A DNA stretch of 64,000 nt from Acidobacteriota bacterium (GTDB lineage Bacteria; Acidobacteriota; UBA6911; JACQSX01), in NCBI GenBank assembly GCA_036507075.1, contig DASXQR010000082.1:1-64000 (forward strand), written 5' to 3'. Below the pieces are notes generated by a model, which worked only from the letters and a program-made list of their open reading frames with translations, was not told the origin of the DNA and did not search any database. How positions within the stretch are numbered: position 1 is the stretch's first letter; the number at the start of each line of letters is the position of its first letter. Position numbers and translations under genes: made by a program. Shown one piece after another: positions 1 through 18,065 of the stretch.

Positions 1-156
1 TTCCTTGCTCGATTTCGATGCGATGGCGCCGTCCTCGACGTCGATTTGCGGCGGCGACTGATTAACGCGACTGAGGGAGCCCTGTCCCTGCTGCCGACAA
101 TTGTCCTAGTACCAAAGCGATCTGCCAACTTCGTCAGCAATGTCGCTCAAACGTGA
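1..156 (+). CDS. possible 3' end of a gene entering from the left (partial, hypothetical)
   Basis: Frame 1 is open from base 1 to TGA at 154-156 (FLARFRCDGAVLDVDLRRRLINATEG...), converging on the NACHT gene; no recognisable motif. Confidence 0.3.
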   Translation, partial: FLARFRCDGAVLDVDLRRRLINATEGALSLLPTIVLVPKRSANFVSNVAQT

Positions 157-3100
157 CTTCGTGCGACGATCACTTCAAGATGTTGCAATAAATCAGTCCC
201 AGCGAGATCGGCGATGTTCATCTCGCGAGCGATGCGCGGGTTGTCGTTTTTGTTGTGATTCAAGTTCGCATCAGCGAAGAGTGAAAGTGGAAAACATCGG
301 CCCACCGCGAGACCCAGCACGGCCTCGCATGCAGGCCGGCTAAAGTAGTTCTCAATTCCGTATCTGTCGAGAACAATCAACTCCACACCGACATCCGCCA
401 GTATTTCGTAGACACGCAGAGCGTTTGCATTAAGCGGACGGCCGGGCGCAGTGAAATCGCGACCTTTGTCTCCATCCAAGAGGACCACTAAATCGTAGCA
501 ACCGTCGCGCAGTCGGTCGGGCCGCCAGCGCGGGCTCAGGATGTTGTTCCAACCACCAAGCGAATCCGTCACGATCCATAGTTCGGTAGAATCTGGTATC
601 TTCGCGAGGAATTCTTCGATCGTAGGACCGTCAGTGAGGCCCTCGCACCAAATCTTGAACATACCGAGCGTCGTTGCCCGACGGAGACGGTGAATAATCC
701 GTTCAAACGGCGTCGCCTGAGCTTTCCCAAGACGAGCGTCCCGCTCATATTCGGTCGCTCGAACTTCCTGAGCATCCCGCCACGCCGCTGGTGCCACGGC
801 AATCTGATCTCGAACGACCGCCGCCAGACGTCCACCGTCGATCTTCGACATTATGCCAGTTATGAGCCCAGCCATATTGGGAAGCGCCAATCGAAGTGCT
901 TGGGCACGCAATGCCACCAACCTGGGCCAGAAAACGTCGCTGGTAATTTGTCCGATCCATCCAAGGTTCCAGTCGTGCGGAGGTGGCACGTCGCCGGCTT
1001 GCATTGCTGCGTCGTCGGCAAGCAACGCCGCAATACGGCGTTCAATTGTCGGACGATGCTGGCGGTCGATGAGCCCACGTTCCGTCTCATCTTTCAAATT
1101 GCCCTGAAGGCGGCCTCTGAGTTCGACCAAATCGGCGTCCGGAACGCTCTTGGAGCAAGCGAGTCGAATTGCCCATGACCGAATATGTTCCGGGCGCTGC
1201 GCGTTGTCCGCGATCGCAACCAGAGCGGCACCGACCGCAGACGTCGAGATGTCGACCGCTCCGAGAAAGCTTAGGAAGTGGTATAGGGCGCCGCTTGAAG
1301 TGTTCCGATCGGCGATAATGCGCTCTAGCTCTGTTACTGCGGCTTGAGAAAGGCCATGGCGTCGATGGTACGCAGCCACCGAGTTGCCTTCAGATGACAT
1401 CATGCATTGGACTATGAGTACGTCGTTCGTGATCCTCAGTCCATAGTGCTCAATTACCCGAACCAACCAAGGCAGCGCGGGGTTATGCGACAGTTGGTTT
1501 TCAGAGATCCACCGAACGTTCGTCAGCGGGTCGATTTCTTGCAGCCAAGTCTCGCATTGCTGGGAGAGCCATGCTTTTCGCCCGTCGTCTAGGTCTGGCC
1601 AATCCTTCGCATTCAGACGGGATAGGACGCCCAGAACCGAACCCAAGCTCTGTTCAGTCAGCACCACGCTGTGTTGGTCAGCGAGTCTCACTCGCTCGCA
1701 CTCGTTTCGGACGTGGTCGGCGGCCAGCATCGCAGCGACAGCTTCATCCTGTGCTTCAACCAGTCCGCCAAGATGTGGCGCCAAGACCCGCCGGACCTCC
1801 CGGCTGCCGAATCTCGCCATCGTTTCCATCAGCACTCGGGAATCGGGCTGTTGGGCAAGCCACCCGGCGACTGTGGGCGTGATGAAGCCCGCGACGATCC
1901 GTGAAAAAAAGACTAGCCTGTCACCCGAGGCGAGAAATCTCGCCAGGATAGCCTGACCTACCTTTTCGCCATGGTCTGGCAATCTTCTAATCGCTGCGAT
2001 CGGCTTCTCCACGTCATCCGGCGTGATACGCGCCCGCTCCCAAGCGACCATGACGTGTGCAACGGCTTCAGCCCAATGCGGATCCCAGAGCTCCGCCATC
2101 GCTTCCCACAACGGCCCGCTGTAGCTGCTAAACCAAGTCGAACTGACGGCGGTCGGATGTCCCGTCATGAAATCGAGAAATGCCTGCACAGTGTCTCGGC
2201 TCTGAAGCTCTCGAAAGCGATAGAACGCCGAACTAACCATCGAATCGGTATTCAAAAGAATCGGTAACACTGTCGAAAGAGTCGTGGCATCCACCAACGC
2301 TCCGATGCACCCAAGCAGACTCGAATAAAGGGTATCGTTGGGGTCGAGTGCTCGCACGAGATCTGGAATTAACGACGAATCCCCCGCCGCCGCGACCGCA
2401 CTGATCGCACTTTCGCGCAATAACTGCGGCCGATTCCGATCCACGGCAATCGGCTGAGCGACATTCACGACACTGCGAACCCTGCGCGCTCCGAGAGTGA
2501 CCATGGCGTTTGCGGCTCTCACGGGGTTCGGGTTCGCGATGTCTGCCATAAGTTGACGCTCAACGTCCGGCGTCACAAAGCGCGTCAAGGCGTCTAGATT
2601 CAAGAAAGGATGGCGGCGTATGTACTCTTGCTCATCAGCAAGCCGATCAAACAATCGGTTGACTACGATCGTCCGTTCGGCCTCGTCGAAGGCATGTGGC
2701 GATGTCGCGATGACCCAATCCGGATTGTGAAGTGCGAAGGATCGTCTCACGCCCGGATGCAACTCGGCCAAGTAACTGACGCAGTTACGCCATGACTCGT
2801 TCGGTATTCTAGTCTGATCATAGTTCACAAGCAGTTGAACGCGGTCAAGACTCGTTCCTTTCAGTTCCACTGCTGCGAGATACTCGCCGTGTGAGCGCAT
2901 CTGGAATGAAATGCCGTTGGGAGTCCGCACCAGAATCGAGTGCGTCAGTTCATTGAGAAGGTTTTCGGCCCCTTCCGCGGTGACCGGCGTGGCGGCCTGA
3001 AGGAGCTGGACTGCCTCGTTGATCCGTAGCTCGTTTCGGGACGCGGTCTCCATCGCGACCGCAAGCATGCGTAGCGCACGCCGCTGACGGTCGGCAGCAA

Positions 3101-3893
3101 CATGAGGACGACTGCTGATCAACGATTCAACAACGTGGTTGACTGCCTCGTGCCGAAGGCGCCCAAGCGCACCGGTCTCGGCGAACATCCGATATAGAAC
3201 TTCGAGGGCGAACGGATTGGTGATCTCAGACCAAAGACCAAAGTTGCGGATCCCGGCCAGGAACAAGTCGATATTCCCCCCGTGGTGTTGAATATAGGCC
3301 CGAACATCGCGCTCCGTCAGACTAAGGACGTAGAACATTTCCGGTGGATTTCTGAAGCGGCTGCGATTGGTCGCAAAAAATGCCTGCCTCGCAGTCAGAA
3401 TAACGTGACGATACGCGCCAGATTCGATCGTCCTCTCGAGGTCCGCGACGAAGGTGTCGACGAAAGCGTGTGGCACTTCATCGACTCCGTCAAGAATCAA
3501 GGCGCGTTCCGTCGCGATGCCATCAACCAGGCCATCTCGGACCAACTCGGCCGGCGCACTCTGTTCGAGCAGCGTCAATAAATCGCCGTCGTATGAGCGG
3601 AGATGCGCGGCAAGTGGCGCCATACCTGAATCGATCGCGCGCTGAACGGATGCCTTCGCAACCGTCGATTTTCCCGACCCTGGTTCTCCGAGGATGATCG
3701 CGACTCCCCGCGCGATGATTTGTTCCAAGGTGGCCTCTGTTCGTGAGGACAGACTGATATTACGAAACTCGTGAGCAGCGACGCGTTCCCAATCGTCGTT
3801 TGTACGAAAGAATCGTTCAATAAAGAATTGAAGGTGGTGAGTGGCCCTGACGCTCTCGATGTATTGCGTGAATTCCTCGCGGTTCATTGACAT
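147..3893 (-). CDS. NACHT/STAND-family NTPase with HEAT/ARM-like helical repeats and C-terminal OLD-type TOPRIM domain; putative anti-phage protein
   Basis: 1248-aa ORF; Walker A IILGEPGSGKST, Walker B LILDGVDE, ILTAR, NPFAL, winged-helix FQMRSHGEYLAA; C-terminal IWCEGLTD...LGGW...LLDGD...RYGIENYF matches TOPRIM E/DxD motifs; SD-like AGGATGAG upstream. Confidence 0.85.
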   Translation of the reverse strand: MSMNREEFTQYIESVRATHHLQFFIERFFRTNDDWERVAAHEFRNISLSSRTEATLEQIIARGVAIILGEPGSGKSTVAKASVQRAIDSGMAPLAAHLRSYDGDLLTLLEQSAPAELVRDGLVDGIATERALILDGVDEVPHAFVDTFVADLERTIESGAYRHVILTARQAFFATNRSRFRNPPEMFYVLSLTERDVRAYIQHHGGNIDLFLAGIRNFGLWSEITNPFALEVLYRMFAETGALGRLRHEAVNHVVESLISSRPHVAADRQRRALRMLAVAMETASRNELRINEAVQLLQAATPVTAEGAENLLNELTHSILVRTPNGISFQMRSHGEYLAAVELKGTSLDRVQLLVNYDQTRIPNESWRNCVSYLAELHPGVRRSFALHNPDWVIATSPHAFDEAERTIVVNRLFDRLADEQEYIRRHPFLNLDALTRFVTPDVERQLMADIANPNPVRAANAMVTLGARRVRSVVNVAQPIAVDRNRPQLLRESAISAVAAAGDSSLIPDLVRALDPNDTLYSSLLGCIGALVDATTLSTVLPILLNTDSMVSSAFYRFRELQSRDTVQAFLDFMTGHPTAVSSTWFSSYSGPLWEAMAELWDPHWAEAVAHVMVAWERARITPDDVEKPIAAIRRLPDHGEKVGQAILARFLASGDRLVFFSRIVAGFITPTVAGWLAQQPDSRVLMETMARFGSREVRRVLAPHLGGLVEAQDEAVAAMLAADHVRNECERVRLADQHSVVLTEQSLGSVLGVLSRLNAKDWPDLDDGRKAWLSQQCETWLQEIDPLTNVRWISENQLSHNPALPWLVRVIEHYGLRITNDVLIVQCMMSSEGNSVAAYHRRHGLSQAAVTELERIIADRNTSSGALYHFLSFLGAVDISTSAVGAALVAIADNAQRPEHIRSWAIRLACSKSVPDADLVELRGRLQGNLKDETERGLIDRQHRPTIERRIAALLADDAAMQAGDVPPPHDWNLGWIGQITSDVFWPRLVALRAQALRLALPNMAGLITGIMSKIDGGRLAAVVRDQIAVAPAAWRDAQEVRATEYERDARLGKAQATPFERIIHRLRRATTLGMFKIWCEGLTDGPTIEEFLAKIPDSTELWIVTDSLGGWNNILSPRWRPDRLRDGCYDLVVLLDGDKGRDFTAPGRPLNANALRVYEILADVGVELIVLDRYGIENYFSRPACEAVLGLAVGRCFPLSLFADANLNHNKNDNPRIAREMNIADLAGTDLLQHLEVIVARSHV

Positions 3894-4645
3894 TAGCTCA
3901 TCCTACGAGCAACTTCGCACGGGTTGAAGCGCGAACGACTTTCGGTGACGCACGAACCTTATGAGAACTACGGTGAGCCCCTTCATGCTGCTGAAGAAAG
4001 ATAACTCCTTTCCCTAGTTGCTAGCGCGCTGTTAAAGAGCGTTTTTAGCATACAGCCGGACGGTATTCCAATGGGACTTGAGGACGAGACCCTCCAATGG
4101 AACCGACGACCGTGGGGGAACAAGAATGTCATGAGATCATGAATGCGACGCGTGTCGTAAGATGCCTGGATGAGACAAAGTCGCAGATCATGAAATGGAC
4201 CGAGGCCGGCGGGTCGGGCCGACCGTGTCAGTTCAATACCGGATGGGAAGAAAGCTGGTGATCGATCTCAGTCGCGTTCCTTCCAGAGCGCACGCATTTA
4301 GAATATTGGGGCTCGTTTGTCCCGCTGATTGTTGCTCGCACCGTGGTCGAAGCCGTTGAACGGATGGGCGCCGTGGTGCCAGCGACCGACGTCGTCGGTT
4401 AATCAAGAATGGGAGGCATTGCACGTCTCACTTATGTTCCAGCCTTTTTGAGCGCCAACAATTCAAAGTCACTTGGCGGAACCGATCAACTCGCAGGCTT
4501 TCCCGGAATACAGCACTCCCCGTTCCTCGACGTGATCGGAAAACAGAAGGTAGGATGGAATGGCTTCCGATTCGTCCGGCGGCAGACGGACGTGGCTGAA
4601 GATCAGTAATCCCCGGACCAATTGAGACACTACGAAGTTGAAGCC

Positions 4646-5206
4646 TCAATGCGCGTCCAGATGTTCGAAAATCTTCGATCCTTCGTGGGTGATTATCTCC
4701 TTGGCCAGCGCGTAGTTTTCCTTTCTTAGATCAGTTGCGGATTTTCGTGAAGACACTCTTTCCGTGAGATTGTCGATCGCCTTCTGGAGTTCCACTTTGA
4801 GCGCCACTTGCTTGGCTTTCAGCGCATCCACATCTATCTCAATCGCATAAATGCGACTACTGTTCTTCCCAACCCGAAACCCAAAATGTGCCACTGACGA
4901 TTCGGCACGTTCCGTTGGTTCGTCGCCTATGTACCGAAACTCAATGACGAAGCGTTTCAGATCTTCGTCGTAAAATCCTCTTACCGCTTCGGGGACATCG
5001 TAGGGCGATAAATGTAAGGTAACTGCCGTAGGTCGAACAAAAACTGGTGAGTCGAGTAGTTTGCCGGCTCGGCTTTCAGCGCGCCGCTCATAAAGGTTGC
5101 CGAAACGGACGAAATCCAAAACAGTAAGCCGCAAACGCGATAGACTATGAATCTGATTTGTGTCATCCAGAGAACCGCCGTGTGAAGTCCTGGAAACCGA
5201 TCCCAT
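4646..5206 (-). CDS. hypothetical protein (start uncertain)
   Basis: 186-aa ORF; the C-terminal ~125 aa (SPYDVPEAVRGFYD...FVIEFRY...RIYAIEIDV + helix) look protein-like, the N-terminus less so. Confidence 0.55.
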   Translation of the reverse strand: MGSVSRTSHGGSLDDTNQIHSLSRLRLTVLDFVRFGNLYERRAESRAGKLLDSPVFVRPTAVTLHLSPYDVPEAVRGFYDEDLKRFVIEFRYIGDEPTERAESSVAHFGFRVGKNSSRIYAIEIDVDALKAKQVALKVELQKAIDNLTERVSSRKSATDLRKENYALAKEIITHEGSKIFEHLDAH

Positions 5207-5603
5207 AAATACTTCTGGCGCTTTTTTGGACGGAAACAGTGCGCTTATTATCTGCTAAAGATGAAATTAAATTGCAACCGATTTTGGCTATGCCAATAAA
5301 CTGAGGAATCTGGGGTTACTTCGGCCGGTCGCTCTCGGCGTATAGCATCTCCAGCTACCCGTCTTCGATCTTCCCACCACGCTGTTTCAATTTCATTGAT
5401 CGTCGGAATCGGGTTGGAAAACAGCGCCGCATATGTTTATTCAGAGTCACTGCATTGCGCGAAGTATGGGGGGCGACAGTCGATTCTCGAGAGTGGAGAA
5501 TGCCGATTTCGGGTGCGCCCAGGGTGCGGAAAGTGCGTTGAAATGCCGCTCTGTGCCGCTCTGTGCAGCGTAAGTCACCGTCGAATCGAGGGAAATGAGA
5601 AGA

Positions 5604-5649
5604 ACTTCTAAGCAGTAGGTCGCCTGTTCGAGCCAGGCCGGGCGCGCCA
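5604..5649 (+). mobile_element. 3' half of tRNA-Arg(TCT); probable attR of an integrated element lying to the left
   Basis: Anticodon loop CTTCTAA, T-arm GCCTG-TTCGAGC-CAGGC, acceptor 3' strand CGGGCGC-G-CCA; no 5' half (D-arm/acceptor) upstream. Confidence 0.75.
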
Positions 5650-5781
5650 CACAAGTTACAAGTTTTCAGCGGCCAGAATTACCAGTGGCCTCGCTGGTCC
5701 CGTGTTCCAATGCAATTTCGTAGAAACGCTACAATGGCCGCCCACCGGCGGTGCCCCCACAAGGTATATCAACATCACCTG

Positions 5782-5930
5782 TCAGAGCCCGAGCGCAGCG
5801 AGGGACTCTTCGCAGTACGAATGAGAAGCCGCATACGGTTCCGTGTGAGCCCAGTCATTTCGGATTTCCACCAGTCGCCCCACTTCACCGCTCGTGACCG
5901 GTATCCCCAAGTACGCGCATAGTTCTGAGA
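5782..5930 (-). pseudogene. possible HEPN-domain gene remnant
   Basis: Short frame SELCAYLGIPVTSGEVGRLVEIRNDWAH contains an RNxxAH HEPN-like motif; no convincing N-terminus. Confidence 0.3.
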
Positions 5931-6059
5931 CGCTGCGCCGAAATGGACACCAGTTGAAACCCTGCGCGTGCTTCGACATCAGTGGACCTGCTGTGCGCGC
6001 GTCCTGGGAGCTCATCGGCAAAAGCTTTCTTACAGTCCCAAGCTTCCGAACCGATAATC

Positions 6060-6317
6060 TCAGTATTCGTCCAGATGCTCGCGCACAATCACCTTGAGCA
6101 TGGTCTGGTAACCGAGGCCTCGCTTGGCGCCCTTCGCACGGAGTTTTTGCACCAGATCCTGGTCAAGGAGAATTGACGTCGGTTTGGCGCGCTGCCGCAG
6201 AAGCCGCCCTGTCCGGCTTGCGCGGATGTCTTCGCCCAAGTCCCGTCGGTCGAACTCGCTGAGCTGAGCATCCCTCGTGGTTCGCTTACTCTTCTCTTTC
6301 CGCAATGGCTTCTTCAT
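6060..6317 (-). CDS. brnA: BrnA/CopG-family antitoxin
   Basis: C-terminal PTSILLDQDLVQKLRAKGAKRGLGYQTMLKVIVREHL; overlaps the end of brnT. Confidence 0.8.
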   Translation of the reverse strand: MKKPLRKEKSKRTTRDAQLSEFDRRDLGEDIRASRTGRLLRQRAKPTSILLDQDLVQKLRAKGAKRGLGYQTMLKVIVREHLDEY

Positions 6318-6633
6318 AAAGCTTCCTTTCTTTGCGTCGCATGGGTCGACAACTGATGGATCGAACACGATCGCCGCGCCGGGTGAAGATCAACGTGAGC
6401 CTGCGGCCGGTATTGTCCTGCCCGAGCGCCAGCCATCGAATTTCCTCATACACGGGCTCGATGATTCGTCCAGCAAAAAGAAGCGGCTGGTGGAGCATTG
6501 CTTCTACATCGCGCGTTGCAACGCCATGCTTCCGATGCTTCGTTCGATTCCCCTCGTCCCACTCGAAGTCGTCAGGCTCGCCGGTGAGACACTCGAGCCA
6601 CGCCGCCGCTTCGGAGTCCTCGACAAGCCGCAT
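6286..6633 (-). CDS. brnT: BrnT-family ribonuclease toxin
   Basis: FEWDEGNRTKHRKHGV...EIRWLALG...LIFTRRGDRVRSISCRPMRRKERKLYE; start taken at ATG 6633. Confidence 0.88.
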   Translation of the reverse strand: MRLVEDSEAAAWLECLTGEPDDFEWDEGNRTKHRKHGVATRDVEAMLHQPLLFAGRIIEPVYEEIRWLALGQDNTGRRLTLIFTRRGDRVRSISCRPMRRKERKLYEEAIAEREE

Positions 6634-6820
6634 AGCTATAATATAGCTATCAACGCTCCAGTTGGCAAGAGTTTGTTCAGGCTGAGTTCCACGTTTGCGC
6701 CGGCCGGTCCATTTCAATTGGCCCGCGGGAAATGAAGGCATAAAATGAAACGAAATACGAGGGTTTCATCATGAAGCGAGTTTTTGTTCGACAGGCTACC
6801 AGGTCGTCCTCGGTTATGTT

Positions 6821-7027
6821 CCCATCGGCGAGCGTGTCAAGCTCACGGTGCGCGGTGAGGCGTTCAACTTTCTGAACCACACCAACTTCCTGTCGCCCGA
6901 CACGTCGCTGACGGTGACCGTCGATCCCAAGACCGCCCAGGCTGTCTTTAATTCGCCGAATTTCGGACTGATCACGGGAGCGCGCGCAGCGCGGTTTATG
7001 CAACTGGTGGCGAGATTGGAGTTTTAG
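6821..7027 (+). pseudogene. C-terminal remnant of an Oar-like TonB-dependent receptor
   Basis: Frame reads PIGERVKLTVRGEAFNFLNHTNF...NFGLITGARAARFMQLVARLEF*, the same C-terminal signature as the three intact receptors here; no start or N-terminus. Confidence 0.8.
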
Positions 7028-7086
7028 GGCGAGTCCGGCCGAGAGGAGACCGCAAAATTTGAAGACATTCTGAATTTGCGAACGGG

Positions 7087-7167
7087 TCGATCAACAAACA
7101 GTATCGAATATGTTTTCGCTGGGAGGGTGAAGATGCCTACGAGGTCGAAATCACGGACTATCACTAA
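7087..7167 (+). pseudogene. higB: 5'-truncated HigB toxin remnant
   Basis: SINKQYRICFRWEGEDAYEVEITDYH* is the typical HigB C-terminus, directly ahead of higA; the N-terminal two-thirds is missing. Confidence 0.8.
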
Positions 7168-7519
7168 TAAACGAGGAAGAAGGCACAGGCGCGCTCCGTC
7201 GGCGGGTGTGGTTGGCCGGCGTTTGCCGAGAAACAGGCCTCCGACGCATCCAGGCGAGATGCTCCTCGAGGAGTTTCTGAAGCCGCTAGGGATCAGCCAG
7301 TCGGAGTTTGCTGTTCGTTTGGGCGTGTCGTTTCCGCGTCTCAACGAGATCATCCATCGTAAACGGGCGGTAACGCCGGATACGGCGCTTCGCTTGGCCC
7401 GAGTCTTGGGGACATCGGCCGACTTTTGGCTCGGCTTGCAGCTTGACTGGGAACTTTGGCATGCCATGAGAAGCGAGAAGGCGGCCGAGGTGGCACAACT
7501 CGAACCGGTGACGCGCTAA
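7133..7519 (+). CDS. higA: HigA-family addiction module antitoxin (HTH)
   Basis: PPTHPGEMLLEEFLKPLGISQSEFAVRLGVSFPRLNEII..KRAVTPDTALRLARVLGTSADFWLGLQ; start uncertain. Confidence 0.9.
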   Translation: MPTRSKSRTITNKRGRRHRRAPSAGVVGRRLPRNRPPTHPGEMLLEEFLKPLGISQSEFAVRLGVSFPRLNEIIHRKRAVTPDTALRLARVLGTSADFWLGLQLDWELWHAMRSEKAAEVAQLEPVTR

Positions 7520-7604
7520 AGAACTTCCCTATGTTATGCTCCTGCCACCGTGCTGTCGCGTCACATCACTGGCTGACGATCGCGCTCTGCAGGTCGCCCG
7601 GAGA

Positions 7605-8009
7605 TCAAGCCCTCACGTCCCACTTCGGAAAAAACTCACGAACCGCCCGTGCCAGTGAATGATCCGCCGTTACAAATATCGCCTTCAAATACTCTGCCAA
7701 AGCAACATACGTGGCGTCGCAAGCTGAGAAATTCCTTCGCAACTGCAGTACTCTTTCTACAAACATGAGGTGACCGTGTCGGGATACTGGCAGGTCTGAA
7801 TAATCCCTTAGCGCTTCTTTCGCTCGCTCCTCGGAAAGACGCCTCTCCAGCAAAGCTCTGCGCAATGCTGAGCAGACCTCTACGTCGCACAGCGCCGGAA
7901 TGTGCAGGTCCGAATCAACTCCTGTGATAACCCTTTCAATCGAAGTTGCGCTTTCCGTGCGCAGCAGATATTCAACAATTGCCGAGGCATCGGCTACCAC
8001 AATCTTCAC
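7605..8009 (-). CDS. vapC: VapC PIN-domain toxin
   Basis: IVVADASAIVEYLL...DVEVCSALRR...NFSACDATYVALAE..FVTADHSL. Confidence 0.9.
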   Translation of the reverse strand: MKIVVADASAIVEYLLRTESATSIERVITGVDSDLHIPALCDVEVCSALRRALLERRLSEERAKEALRDYSDLPVSRHGHLMFVERVLQLRRNFSACDATYVALAEYLKAIFVTADHSLARAVREFFPKWDVRA

Positions 8010-8245
8010 GAAGCGTGCCGCTTGCTCCGTTCTTCACGGATCAGGGAAGCCGCACCTTTGCCCAAATCGACAGGGGTGCGACGTCGGATTCTGTCGAAGA
8101 TTTCGGAGGCCGGTGGGCGGGCGATTTCATGCTCCAGGATGTCCTGAATGTAATTAGTCAGCGTAGTTCCTCTTTCTCTTGCGCGCCGGCGTAATTCTCG
8201 ATGGAGACGGTCCGGTACATTTCGGACTTGTATCATTTTGGGCAT
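8006..8245 (-). CDS. ribbon-helix-helix antitoxin (FitA/VapB-like)
   Basis: MIQVRNVPDRLHRELRRRARERGTTLTNYI; ATGA overlap with vapC. Confidence 0.85.
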   Translation of the reverse strand: MPKMIQVRNVPDRLHRELRRRARERGTTLTNYIQDILEHEIARPPASEIFDRIRRRTPVDLGKGAASLIREERSKRHAS

Positions 8246-8300
8246 ACGCAACAGTATCGCACATGCGCGGCGCATGTGCAATTCACGAGCATCTAAAAAC

Positions 8301-8467
8301 GAAGAACGCCAAGAAAGCTAAGCTCATCATGGGTCCGAACAACCGGCCCGACTGCAAGCAATTGAAAGTTCTGAAGAAGTGTCACGTGTAAAGCGCAGTA
8401 ACATTTGAACTGCCGGACTGAAAAAGAAATTCTTAGCGTTCTTCGCGTTCTTGGCGGTTCAATTTTT
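8301..8467. repeat. ~165-bp dispersed MITE/REP-like element, copy 1 (inverted copy at 62666-62836)
   Basis: Ends GAAGAACGCCAAGAA / TTCTTGGCGGTTC; the internal sequence matches the reverse complement of 62666-62836 with few substitutions. Confidence 0.85.
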
Positions 8468-9019
8468 TCTCACGTTCTCAGGGAGTGGGTACTCGAAGTC
8501 GTAGTAATGCTTACCGTCAGCGATCTTGATCGCCATCTTGCCCGCAAGACCCGCCAATTGACCGGTGCCGGAGTCCGGCACGACAGTGATAATCAGTTGC
8601 GGTTCGCCGCGCGTCATGGTGCCACTGTGCTGAAGTACGAAGGCGCCGCTGCGGCGGCGCAGTGTTCCGCTGACCCGCTCGATCGCCACGTAACCGGCCG
8701 AGCCCTTGACGTCGGTGCCGGCTGTAAGCATCTGACCCTTGCTGGTACCTTCGAGATCGCCGTGGAACTGTTTGTCGATTGTCATTCTGCCGAGGGTTGC
8801 GCCCTCGGCTTTGTCGTCGGGCGGCTGAGGGATCAGCTTTACGTCAAACGTTCCACTTGCATGAGCCGTCATGATCGCTCCCTTCTGAACAGCACCTGGA
8901 ACCGGCGCATCGGTCTGCGTAAATACCGGGGAACCGATACCAAGCGCCAGGCAGATACCCGCAATAACACCAGCTTCAGCACGAGATCGGTTCTTCATGT
9001 TTGCTCCATATGACGACAT
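8459..9019 (-). CDS. DUF3224-family protein
   Basis: ASGTFDVK...[23 protein letters not shown]...[25 protein letters not shown]...[16 protein letters not shown]-terminal signal-like segment. Confidence 0.85.
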
Positions 9020-17216: not shown

Positions 17217-17290
17217 GGTGAGCGTAGCTCAGCTGGCAGAGCACCAGGTTGTGGCCCTGGGGGTCGCGGGTTCGAACCCCGTCGCTCACC
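17217..17290 (+). tRNA. tRNA-His(GTG)
   Basis: G-1 plus GTGAGCG/CGCTCAC acceptor, CCAGG-TTGTGGC-CCTGG anticodon arm, GGTTCGAACCC T-arm; CCA not encoded. Confidence 0.95.
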
Positions 17291-17332
17291 CGTTCAAGTT
17301 ACAAGTTAACAGGAGCAAGAATTACCGGTAAG

Positions 17333-17483
17333 GTTTCGGGTTACGGGTTTTCGAGTTGCGGGCTACGAGTTGCGGGGATTGTTCATGGCTTGGTGTCTTG
17401 GTGGTTCATGAGTTTTTTCACCACCAAGGCACCAAGCCGGTCCAAATCGCCAACCTGAAACCCGCAACTCGAAAACCCGTAAC
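17333..17483. repeat. nested inverted repeats (GGGTTAC/GAGTTGC heptamers around a CTTGGTGTCTTGGTGG / CCACCAAGGCACCAAG pair)
   Basis: Two repeat families nested between tRNA genes. Confidence 0.7.
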
Positions 17484-17497
17484 TTGTCGCTTTAGTT

Positions 17498-17574
<77 letters not shown>

Positions 17575-17661
17575 ACCTCTTCGGATTGCAGATTTACGAA
17601 TTCAAAACCTGGCGGCGAGACTGATTTTGAATTCGCTGATTCGGAACTCCGGCAGCGGCCA

Positions 17662-17702
17662 TAAAAAAAGGGGATTCATCTCCCTGGACGATGAATCCCC
17701 TT
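17662..17702 (-). terminator. intrinsic terminator (minus strand; possibly bidirectional)
   Basis: 13-bp stem AAGGGGATTCATC/GATGAATCCCCTT running into a T7 tract on the minus strand. Confidence 0.8.
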
Positions 17703-17846
17703 CTATCAGGAACCGTTAGGTTCCTTATTCAATATCTTCTTCTTCCTCCCGAGATTCTCGACTCTGATCTTGAGATGTACCTGTACTGCCGCTCTTCACA
17801 AAACATGGAGACGATCACAAGCCACTACTTTCTGATCGGCCCTCTA
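17662..17846 (-). ncRNA. candidate ~185-nt small transcript (sRNA, or mRNA for a 25-aa Arg-rich peptide at 17729-17806)
   Basis: Bounded by a near-consensus promoter and an intrinsic terminator with no long ORF between. Confidence 0.5.
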
Positions 17847-17851
17847 TTTTC

Positions 17852-17879
17852 ATGGTAGCAAGGGTCTGGACTCTGTCAA
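17852..17879 (-). promoter_or_regulatory. sigma70-type promoter
   Basis: TTGACA-16nt-TACCAT with an extended -10 TG. Confidence 0.65.
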
Positions 17880-17987
17880 CCTCCGGCGGGCTTCGAATTG
17901 AAGTGGCGAAAACGCAGGGTTTCTGGTTATATGGAAGGCTGTTCAGTCCGGGGATGTTCCGTCCAAGGCGAAACCCGCCTCGTCAGT

Positions 17988-18065
17988 GCGCCTGTAGCTC
18001 AGTCTGGATAGAGCGTTCGCCTCCGGAGCGAAAGGTCAGAGGTTCGAATCCTCTCAGGCGTACCA
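17988..18065 (+). tRNA. tRNA-Arg(CCG)
   Basis: GCGCCTG/CAGGCGT acceptor, TTCGC-CTCCGGA-GCGAA, GGTTCGAATCC, encoded CCA. Confidence 0.95.

Follow-up and report, generated by a model that had tools for sequence, protein, structure and literature searches.

A NACHT ATPase joined to a predicted OLD-type TOPRIM nuclease: a candidate single-gene anti-phage receptor of mainly acidobacterial distribution

Gene and protein architecture

The DNA analysed here (hereafter the window) is a stretch of 64,000 nt from an Acidobacteriota bacterium (assembly GCA_036507075.1, contig DASXQR010000082.1, positions 1 to 64,000). A single open reading frame (ORF) on its minus strand, at 147..3893, encodes a 1248-aa protein which, judged from sequence and modelled structure, is a NACHT ATPase linked through a solenoid of helices to what is predicted to be a TOPRIM nuclease of the OLD type. 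The ORF contains no internal stops, and homologues begin at a methionine two codons in. The host genome comprises 6.1 Mb in 233 contigs, and the window is the start of one of them (C82). Promoter and terminator scans at the gene returned chance-level results. No RNA holder of the gene was listed, which has no bearing on whether it is expressed.

The query alone reaches none of the curated Pfam or NCBIfam cut-offs, its best PADLOC match has an E-value of only 0.0016 and a PDB sequence search gave nothing significant. An AlphaFold2 model of residues 49–1248, built with 98 sequences, is confident (predicted local distance difference test (pLDDT) 92.2, predicted template modelling score (pTM) 0.82). 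It contains, in order, a P-loop domain, helical and winged-helix domains, ∼630 helical residues and an alpha/beta domain.

The gene ends 147 bases from the contig edge of a fragmented assembly, which could suggest that a NACHT gene and an OLD fragment were joined only by misassembly or read-through. However, a TOPRIM domain is present in all 103 proteins that reach 1100 aa and possess both the NACHT and the distal solenoid of the family (a biased count, as part of the 103 were retrieved with the TOPRIM profile itself), the fusion is kept down to about 27% identity and one confident model spans the junction. Because homologues carry the same fusion, we regard the artefact as refuted and give it almost no weight. 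Positions 1–8346 of the window also show 0 differences from a contig of a public sequencing run, which is possibly the source of this very DNA.

NACHT module and helical solenoid

The NACHT/STAND module (2604..3731, minus strand; residues ∼55–430) consists of a nucleotide-binding domain, a first helical domain, a winged-helix domain and a second helical domain, a fold present in the AlphaFold2 model, with no effector ahead of it. It carries a Walker A motif GEPGSGKS (3666..3689, minus strand; residues 69–76), a Walker B motif LILDGVDE (3477..3500, minus strand; residues 132–139) and a sensor-1 LTARQ (T-x-R) at residue 166. Residue counts here and below refer to the ungapped rows of a 98-row family alignment, in which K75 is conserved in 86/88, D138 in 91/91 and R169 in 89/91 rows. 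The N-terminal ∼420 residues of the model fit NLRC4 (8fw2; VIA Z 20.0, 347 aligned residues, root-mean-square deviation (rmsd) 5.4), with further structural matches to other NACHTs including NLRP3, and Pfam NACHT matches homologues of the query. With the whole model, Foldseek returned Avs4 first (E 5e-7, low TM score).

The helical solenoid (714..2603, minus strand; residues 431–1060) is the predicted sensor and is helical almost throughout in the model. Residues ∼430–590 resemble alphaRep/HEAT repeats (E 2e-23), a 36-residue helix at ∼711–746 divides the solenoid in two and residues 600–760 are the least conserved stretch (24% mean identity). An ESM Atlas search with the solenoid gave leads below 0.9 only. 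In a word-based search restricted to proteins of 686–2184 aa, residues 560–1060 matched 19 proteins, every one a family member, so no other effector was seen on this sensor. A few structural alignments to NB-ARC proteins extend from the NTPase to model residues ∼1021–1024, a weak hint that the solenoid may curl back.

C-terminal TOPRIM domain

The OLD-type TOPRIM domain with its short helical tail (150..710, minus strand; residues 1062–1248) contains the motifs CEGLTD at 1083, LDGD at 1139 and GIENYF at 1179. Folded by itself, this segment reaches a pLDDT of 92.3. Its placement comes from fold searches and not from PDB sequence searches, in which the TOPRIM profile found nothing significant. 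The five best Foldseek rows are the C-terminal regions of Burkholderia and Xanthomonas OLD proteins (E 1e-3 to 4e-3), and an exhaustive structural search of 48,161 chains ranked BpOLD first (Z 11.3, 162 aligned residues, rmsd 3.6), followed by TsOLD (8.9), GajA (7.9), PH0156 (7.8) and AriB (7.4). Independently, an ESM Atlas search yielded an OLD-like_TOPRIM cluster at 0.91.

The catalytic residues of BpOLD are given as E400, E404, D455, D457, E508 and K562 in the accessible part of the published account (PMC6755086). By motif order, this set appears to be kept in the query as E1084 (97/97 rows), D1088 (97/97), D1140 (96/96), D1142 (96/96), E1181 (95/96) and K1215 (88/95). OLD nucleases of Class 2 (BpOLD and GajA) and Class 1 (TsOLD) have in common with the query both the fold, a TOPRIM domain with a helical tail, and the catalytic pattern E-x3-D/E, DxD, E, K, but they carry an ABC ATPase where the query has a NACHT module and a 630-aa solenoid.

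These results agree with the initial annotation, which from the letters alone had read a NACHT/STAND ATPase with a C-terminal OLD-type TOPRIM nuclease, an NTPase starting about 60 aa from the N-terminus without an N-terminal effector and intact TOPRIM acidic residues; the last are near-invariant. Its ∼700 aa of helical repeats are indeed helical, but the stretch measures ∼630 aa.

Family and distribution

A first, sequence-based search gave 34 matches and a second, profile-based search gave 112, which separate into 81 members of the family (all at E ≤1e-161) and 31 distant proteins, mostly NACHT (E 6e-23 or worse). Of the 79 proteins showing a Walker A motif, 66 have it no later than residue 80, 11 at 81–200 and only two beyond 200. 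The latter are P0059 (1768 aa), with an extra N-terminal IteS-like S8 peptidase, and P0067 (1451 aa), with an extra N-terminal GGCT/AIG2-like domain; each may be a genuine fusion or a read-through.

The family is mostly acidobacterial with a patchy spread. Acidobacteriota account for 28 of the 34 GTDB loci, two of which (L032 and L034) fall outside the family, and the gene is present in 1/6 genomes of the order and 2/101 genomes of the class. Five GTDB copies (L004, L011, L022, L025 and L030) are broken into pieces by decay or sequencing error. No relatives were found in viral contigs.

Relationship to Avs10

The best NCBIfam matches of the query are two NACHT proteins of anti-phage function, HyoA (E 2e-13) and EruA (E 5e-12), in the N-terminal half only. 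Erebus, Hypnos and bNACHT64 are grouped as Avs10, a capsid sensor, in the available portion of Lee et al. (PMC13581612). The same portion lists E1263A-K1265A of EhAvs10 among effector mutants, and from its position and spacing we infer that this pair marks a C-terminal PD-(D/E)xK nuclease; among the first 30 of 54 places there, the point mutants of other Avs proteins lie at residues 47–98, except C918A-C920A of EcAvs19. Eight of our distant, non-family matches fit the models for EruA and HyoA with E-values of 1e-45 to 1e-87, have Walker A at residues 16–92 and, in 7/8, a C-terminal D...E-x-K motif.

Avs10 (Erebus EruA/Hypnos HyoA/bNACHT64) and the query are alike in being single genes with a NACHT start ∼60–90 aa in, a long helical sensor, a C-terminal nuclease and no N-terminal effector, and Avs10 is the nearest NACHT clade found to the family. 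They differ in the effector, PD-(D/E)xK in Avs10 and TOPRIM in the query, and for the distal sensor (600–1060) homology between the query and Avs10 is not demonstrable. Canonical Avs proteins (Avs3, Avs4, Avs7 and others) and NLRs have the NACHT/STAND core and helical sensor in common with the query, but in canonical Avs and bNACHT proteins the effector is N-terminal, whereas the query and nearly all family members (77/79) lack more than 200 aa before Walker A.

A profile–profile comparison of the family with the Avs10-like proteins gave a probability of 99.9% across 1023 columns, running through the sensor, with a template profile of 8 sequences only. By segment, the probabilities are 99.4 (49–250), 96.8 (250–430) and 85 (430–600, collinear); the TOPRIM segment scores 0.4% against the Avs10-like profile, giving no sign of a PD-(D/E)xK effector. 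In a 42-row NACHT tree, with family rows thinned and L032, P0115 and four other outgroup rows excluded, the family (99/95) and the Avs10-like group (100/99) form separate clades and both are split from 17 other NACHTs (94/94). An earlier 59-row quick tree had grouped L032 and P0115 with the family and Avs10-like proteins at 91. On the strength of these clades and of the segment matches, the family is probably a sister to Avs10, not a member of it.

A narrower version of the receptor function proposed below would make the family an Avs10 (Erebus/Hypnos) subfamily, with the same capsid binding and only the C-terminal nuclease swapped. The similar short N-terminus and nuclease position, the collinear match to residue ∼600 and the rank of HyoA and EruA as nearest NCBIfam models all point this way. 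We nevertheless consider it unlikely, given that (i) the query scores only 48.8 bits against EruA and 44.7 bits against HyoA, compared with curated cut-offs of 1200 and 1000; (ii) the two clades are separate and supported; and (iii) residues 600–1060 have no independent match.

Origin of the nuclease domain

Searched against 1.84 billion representatives, the TOPRIM profile matched 890 proteins at E ≤1e-3 and 91 at E ≤1e-30. Within the best 150 of the 890, the upper tier of at least 280 aa consists of family members or fragments, bar one false positive; P0229, in the match list, was rejected as a cadherin-repeat false positive. The tier beneath the family consists of proteins of 453–558 aa, and 13/13 of those scanned combine an ABC ATPase (AAA_15/AAA_21) with a TOPRIM domain. 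This short ABC-ATPase–TOPRIM subfamily (P0242, P0246, P0250–P0255, P0258–P0262 and L034:588-1721) has a compact helical tail and falls mostly under the Pfam OLD-like_TOPRIM cut-off.

Seven motif residues are common to the family and the short ABC-ATPase–TOPRIM proteins, with Asp/Glu exchanges in four of the latter and in L034, and a TOPRIM tree separates the short proteins from the STAND-fused domains with a branch support of 99. The simplest reading is that the nuclease was captured from a short ABC-ATPase–TOPRIM (OLD) gene, although, because the tree is unrooted, we only infer the direction of capture. An Avs10-like chassis would then have acquired its nuclease from a short OLD gene, and STAND activation would therefore have taken the place of ABC-ATPase control.

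Proposed function

By analogy with Avs, NLR and OLD biology, we propose, at a probability of roughly 0.7, that the protein acts as a one-gene abortive-infection or anti-phage pattern receptor. Three steps may be envisaged: (i) as in Avs and NLR proteins, a conserved protein of the phage would be recognised by the solenoid; (ii) on the same model, the NACHT module would exchange its nucleotide to reach the ATP state and then oligomerise; and (iii) as Avs and OLD biology suggests, the TOPRIM domains, once brought together, would cleave nucleic acid and so kill or arrest the infected cell.

DNA is modestly favoured over tRNA as the predicted substrate, since the fold comes closest to that of Class 2 BpOLD and the two-metal ligands and catalytic lysine are apparently retained. 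AriB, a related TOPRIM protein, cleaves tRNA according to the part of that work available (PMC12409363). The likeliest single trigger, borrowed from Avs10, would be the major capsid protein, which is itself a doubtful candidate. The host genome yielded no capsid gene of the PF05065 family. A more specific form of the proposal, tentative and less likely than not, is that of a separate Acidobacteriota-centred NLR-like family with a captured OLD TOPRIM domain fired by STAND oligomerisation, possibly tRNA-cutting like AriB, and with its own distal sensor for a phage component unsensed by described Avs proteins. The family is centred in soil Acidobacteriota, which enterobacteria-focused screens would under-sample, and its trigger could therefore be an uncatalogued phage feature.

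A defence or anti-plasmid nuclease might alternatively sense infection indirectly, through a guarded host protein or nucleotide pools, as is thought for OLD and GajA. OLD proteins with an ABC ATPase are the likely source of the TOPRIM domain, regulation of GajA by nucleotides is described in the excerpted account (10.1101/2024.10.26.620412), guarding is allowed for repeat sensors in the Kibby et al. preprint text (10.1101/2022.07.19.500537) and the available portion of Lee et al. (PMC13581612) mentions four protective STAND clusters for which no phage trigger was found. In that same portion, however, 13 tested Avs families answer to single phage proteins, and the 630-aa two-part solenoid with its fast-changing middle resembles direct-binding Avs sensors. 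Indirect sensing thus appears rather improbable to us.

The neighbourhoods of family genes bear on whether the protein serves defence at all. The single-gene status initially suggested held up: no conserved neighbour gene was found in 34 GTDB loci and 50 dereplicated full-length loci, and the commonest neighbour cluster (serine recombinases) occurs at 5 loci. Integrases, recombinases and defence genes adjoin the family gene in many loci. In a hand-picked set of 96 proteins from the GTDB loci, defence neighbours include type I restriction–modification (L003), PDC-M27/Azaca-like (L009), Ppl (L015), CBASS and AbiE (L018) and PDC-S71 (L020). A patatin and nSTAND1 pair beside another family member (L006:1798-4736) may also serve defence, although PADLOC does not recognise it.

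We then compared all 149 ORFs of at least 130 aa within 5 kb of the gene at 22 dereplicated metagenome loci with 119 ORFs found in 20 stretches of 8 kb taken at random from the host genome. Matches counted if they reached E ≤1e-15 over at least 60% of the profile, and those to generic kinases and sigma-54 were discarded. Defence neighbours occur at 8/22 loci and in 1/20 control stretches (one-sided p = 0.015). This enrichment is modest and lends the proposal moderate support only, because the rule was post hoc, the counts were read off tables and the control was one genome.

A role outside defence, in DNA repair, RNA processing or mobile-element maintenance, would fit the TOPRIM domains of RNase M5 and primases and the several loci set amid ordinary genes (e.g. 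L005, L007, L010 and L024). It accords poorly with the patchy presence of the gene in the order and class, the lack of conserved neighbours and the many loci beside integrases, recombinases and defence genes, and we judge it most improbable.

Several points weigh against the anti-phage receptor. The case is one of sequence and computed structure, and the residue equivalence to BpOLD is drawn from motifs. Beyond residue ∼600, the segment probabilities against the Avs10-like profile drop to 5.6 (600–760), 2.4 (760–900) and 0.4 (900–1060); because homology past this point is not independently significant, the capsid trigger cannot be transferred from Avs10. The 94/94 split of the NACHT tree is slightly below the support threshold, and that tree is unrooted. 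At 14/22 loci there is no qualifying defence match, several of the matches are toxin–antitoxin-like (AbiE and RosmerTA) and the scoring rule was set after the test set had been viewed. Finally, the ORFs scanned from the putative island that carries the gene (two in the window and four from contig C207, described below) have no PADLOC defence match.

Comparison with described systems

In the literature searched, as far as its accessible text goes, published TOPRIM effectors are attached to ABC ATPases and retrons or belong to Detocs and ParAB systems. PARIS AriB, the retron Eco2 RT-TOPRIM and the Detocs TOPRIM variant likewise use the domain as a regulated defence effector, but there control lies with an ABC ATPase, a retron reverse transcriptase (RT) and a two-component-like system, respectively, in contrast to the same-chain STAND receptor of the query. 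Gabija and PARIS also have a partner (the GajB helicase or the AriA ATPase), whereas the query has no conserved partner gene.

Full-text searches, outside whose coverage most subscription journals lie, found no TOPRIM domain fused to a STAND protein. The term "Toprim" is absent from the preprint text and seven journal supplements of Lee et al., whose other supplementary files could list the family undescribed, and TOPRIM is absent from the preprint text of Kibby et al. (10.1101/2022.07.19.500537), whose tables could do the same. The latter text places NACHT effectors occasionally at the extreme C-terminus, with no TOPRIM among the effectors it lists. The missing N-terminal effector was therefore rejected as a novelty, since Avs10-like relatives and the Kibby et al. 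text show an inverted layout. Of the unusual arrangement originally claimed, the STAND–TOPRIM pairing stands, not having been found in print, while the missing effector has an Avs10-like precedent. As for a system already described, the layout matches Avs10, but no Pfam or NCBIfam cut-off is reached and the effector differs. We conclude from these sequence comparisons that the inverted layout is already known, that the TOPRIM effector appears to be new and that the distal sensor is possibly new.

If the proposal is true, TOPRIM joins the effectors that bacterial NLR-like receptors can fire, and pattern recognition can take over the control of an OLD nuclease, a role that usually falls to an ABC ATPase. 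Together with Avs10, the family would provide a natural pair of receptors differing in their C-terminal nuclease. The pair bears on a prediction in the Kibby et al. preprint text that a C-terminal effector curls back to the place of an N-terminal one.

Genomic island and other features of the window

The gene had also been placed in a probable tRNA-integrated island, which our results support. A 45-nt 3' half of tRNA-Arg(TCT), ending in CCA, lies at 5605..5649 on the plus strand and is likely the att end of an element extending leftwards over the gene, which lies 1.7 kb away on the inner side. It differs by 2 mismatches from the intact copy, which lies close to one end of contig C163 with a tyrosine integrase gene after it. 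Another contig, C207, overlaps the window start by 27 nt; encoded on it are an 8xMP protein, a dCTP-deaminase-like protein and part of a helicase. The orientations of C163, C207 and the window are compatible with one element that has the gene near its right end; its continuity is unproven because C163 and C207 have only a 121-nt repeat (96.7% identity) in common. In 4-mer usage the gene deviates strongly, at the 98th percentile when set against 1521 segments of the genome. Only one family relative has the flanking HlyD orthologue, and it does not serve as an empty-site comparison because synteny is lacking and the contig breaks off.

Upstream of the gene, inside the putative island, a 186-aa ORF (4646..5206, minus strand) matches nothing in Pfam, and homologues of it turned up neither elsewhere in the genome nor in the fetched loci of the family. 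On C207 (L047), the dCTP-deaminase-like gene, which has a C-terminal extension, and the 8xMP membrane protein (3030-3953 and 1845-2870) could be defence cargo. C207, C35 and the end of C163 contain related segments (85–97% identity), which suggests several copies of a small integrative element.

Directly outside the att fragment, at 6060-8281, lies a toxin–antitoxin cluster of BrnT/BrnA, a HigA-like helix-turn-helix protein and VapBC (PIN and FitA-like ribbon-helix-helix). It is followed at 8300-8480 by a ∼170-bp non-coding repeat with more than 15 genome copies (80–96% identity), whose palindromic core (8430-8470) has many more copies and is REP- or MITE-like (i.e. resembling repetitive extragenic palindromes or miniature inverted-repeat transposable elements). 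Further along the window, three tRNA genes, His(GTG), Arg(TCG) and Arg(CCG), are located at 17218-18065.

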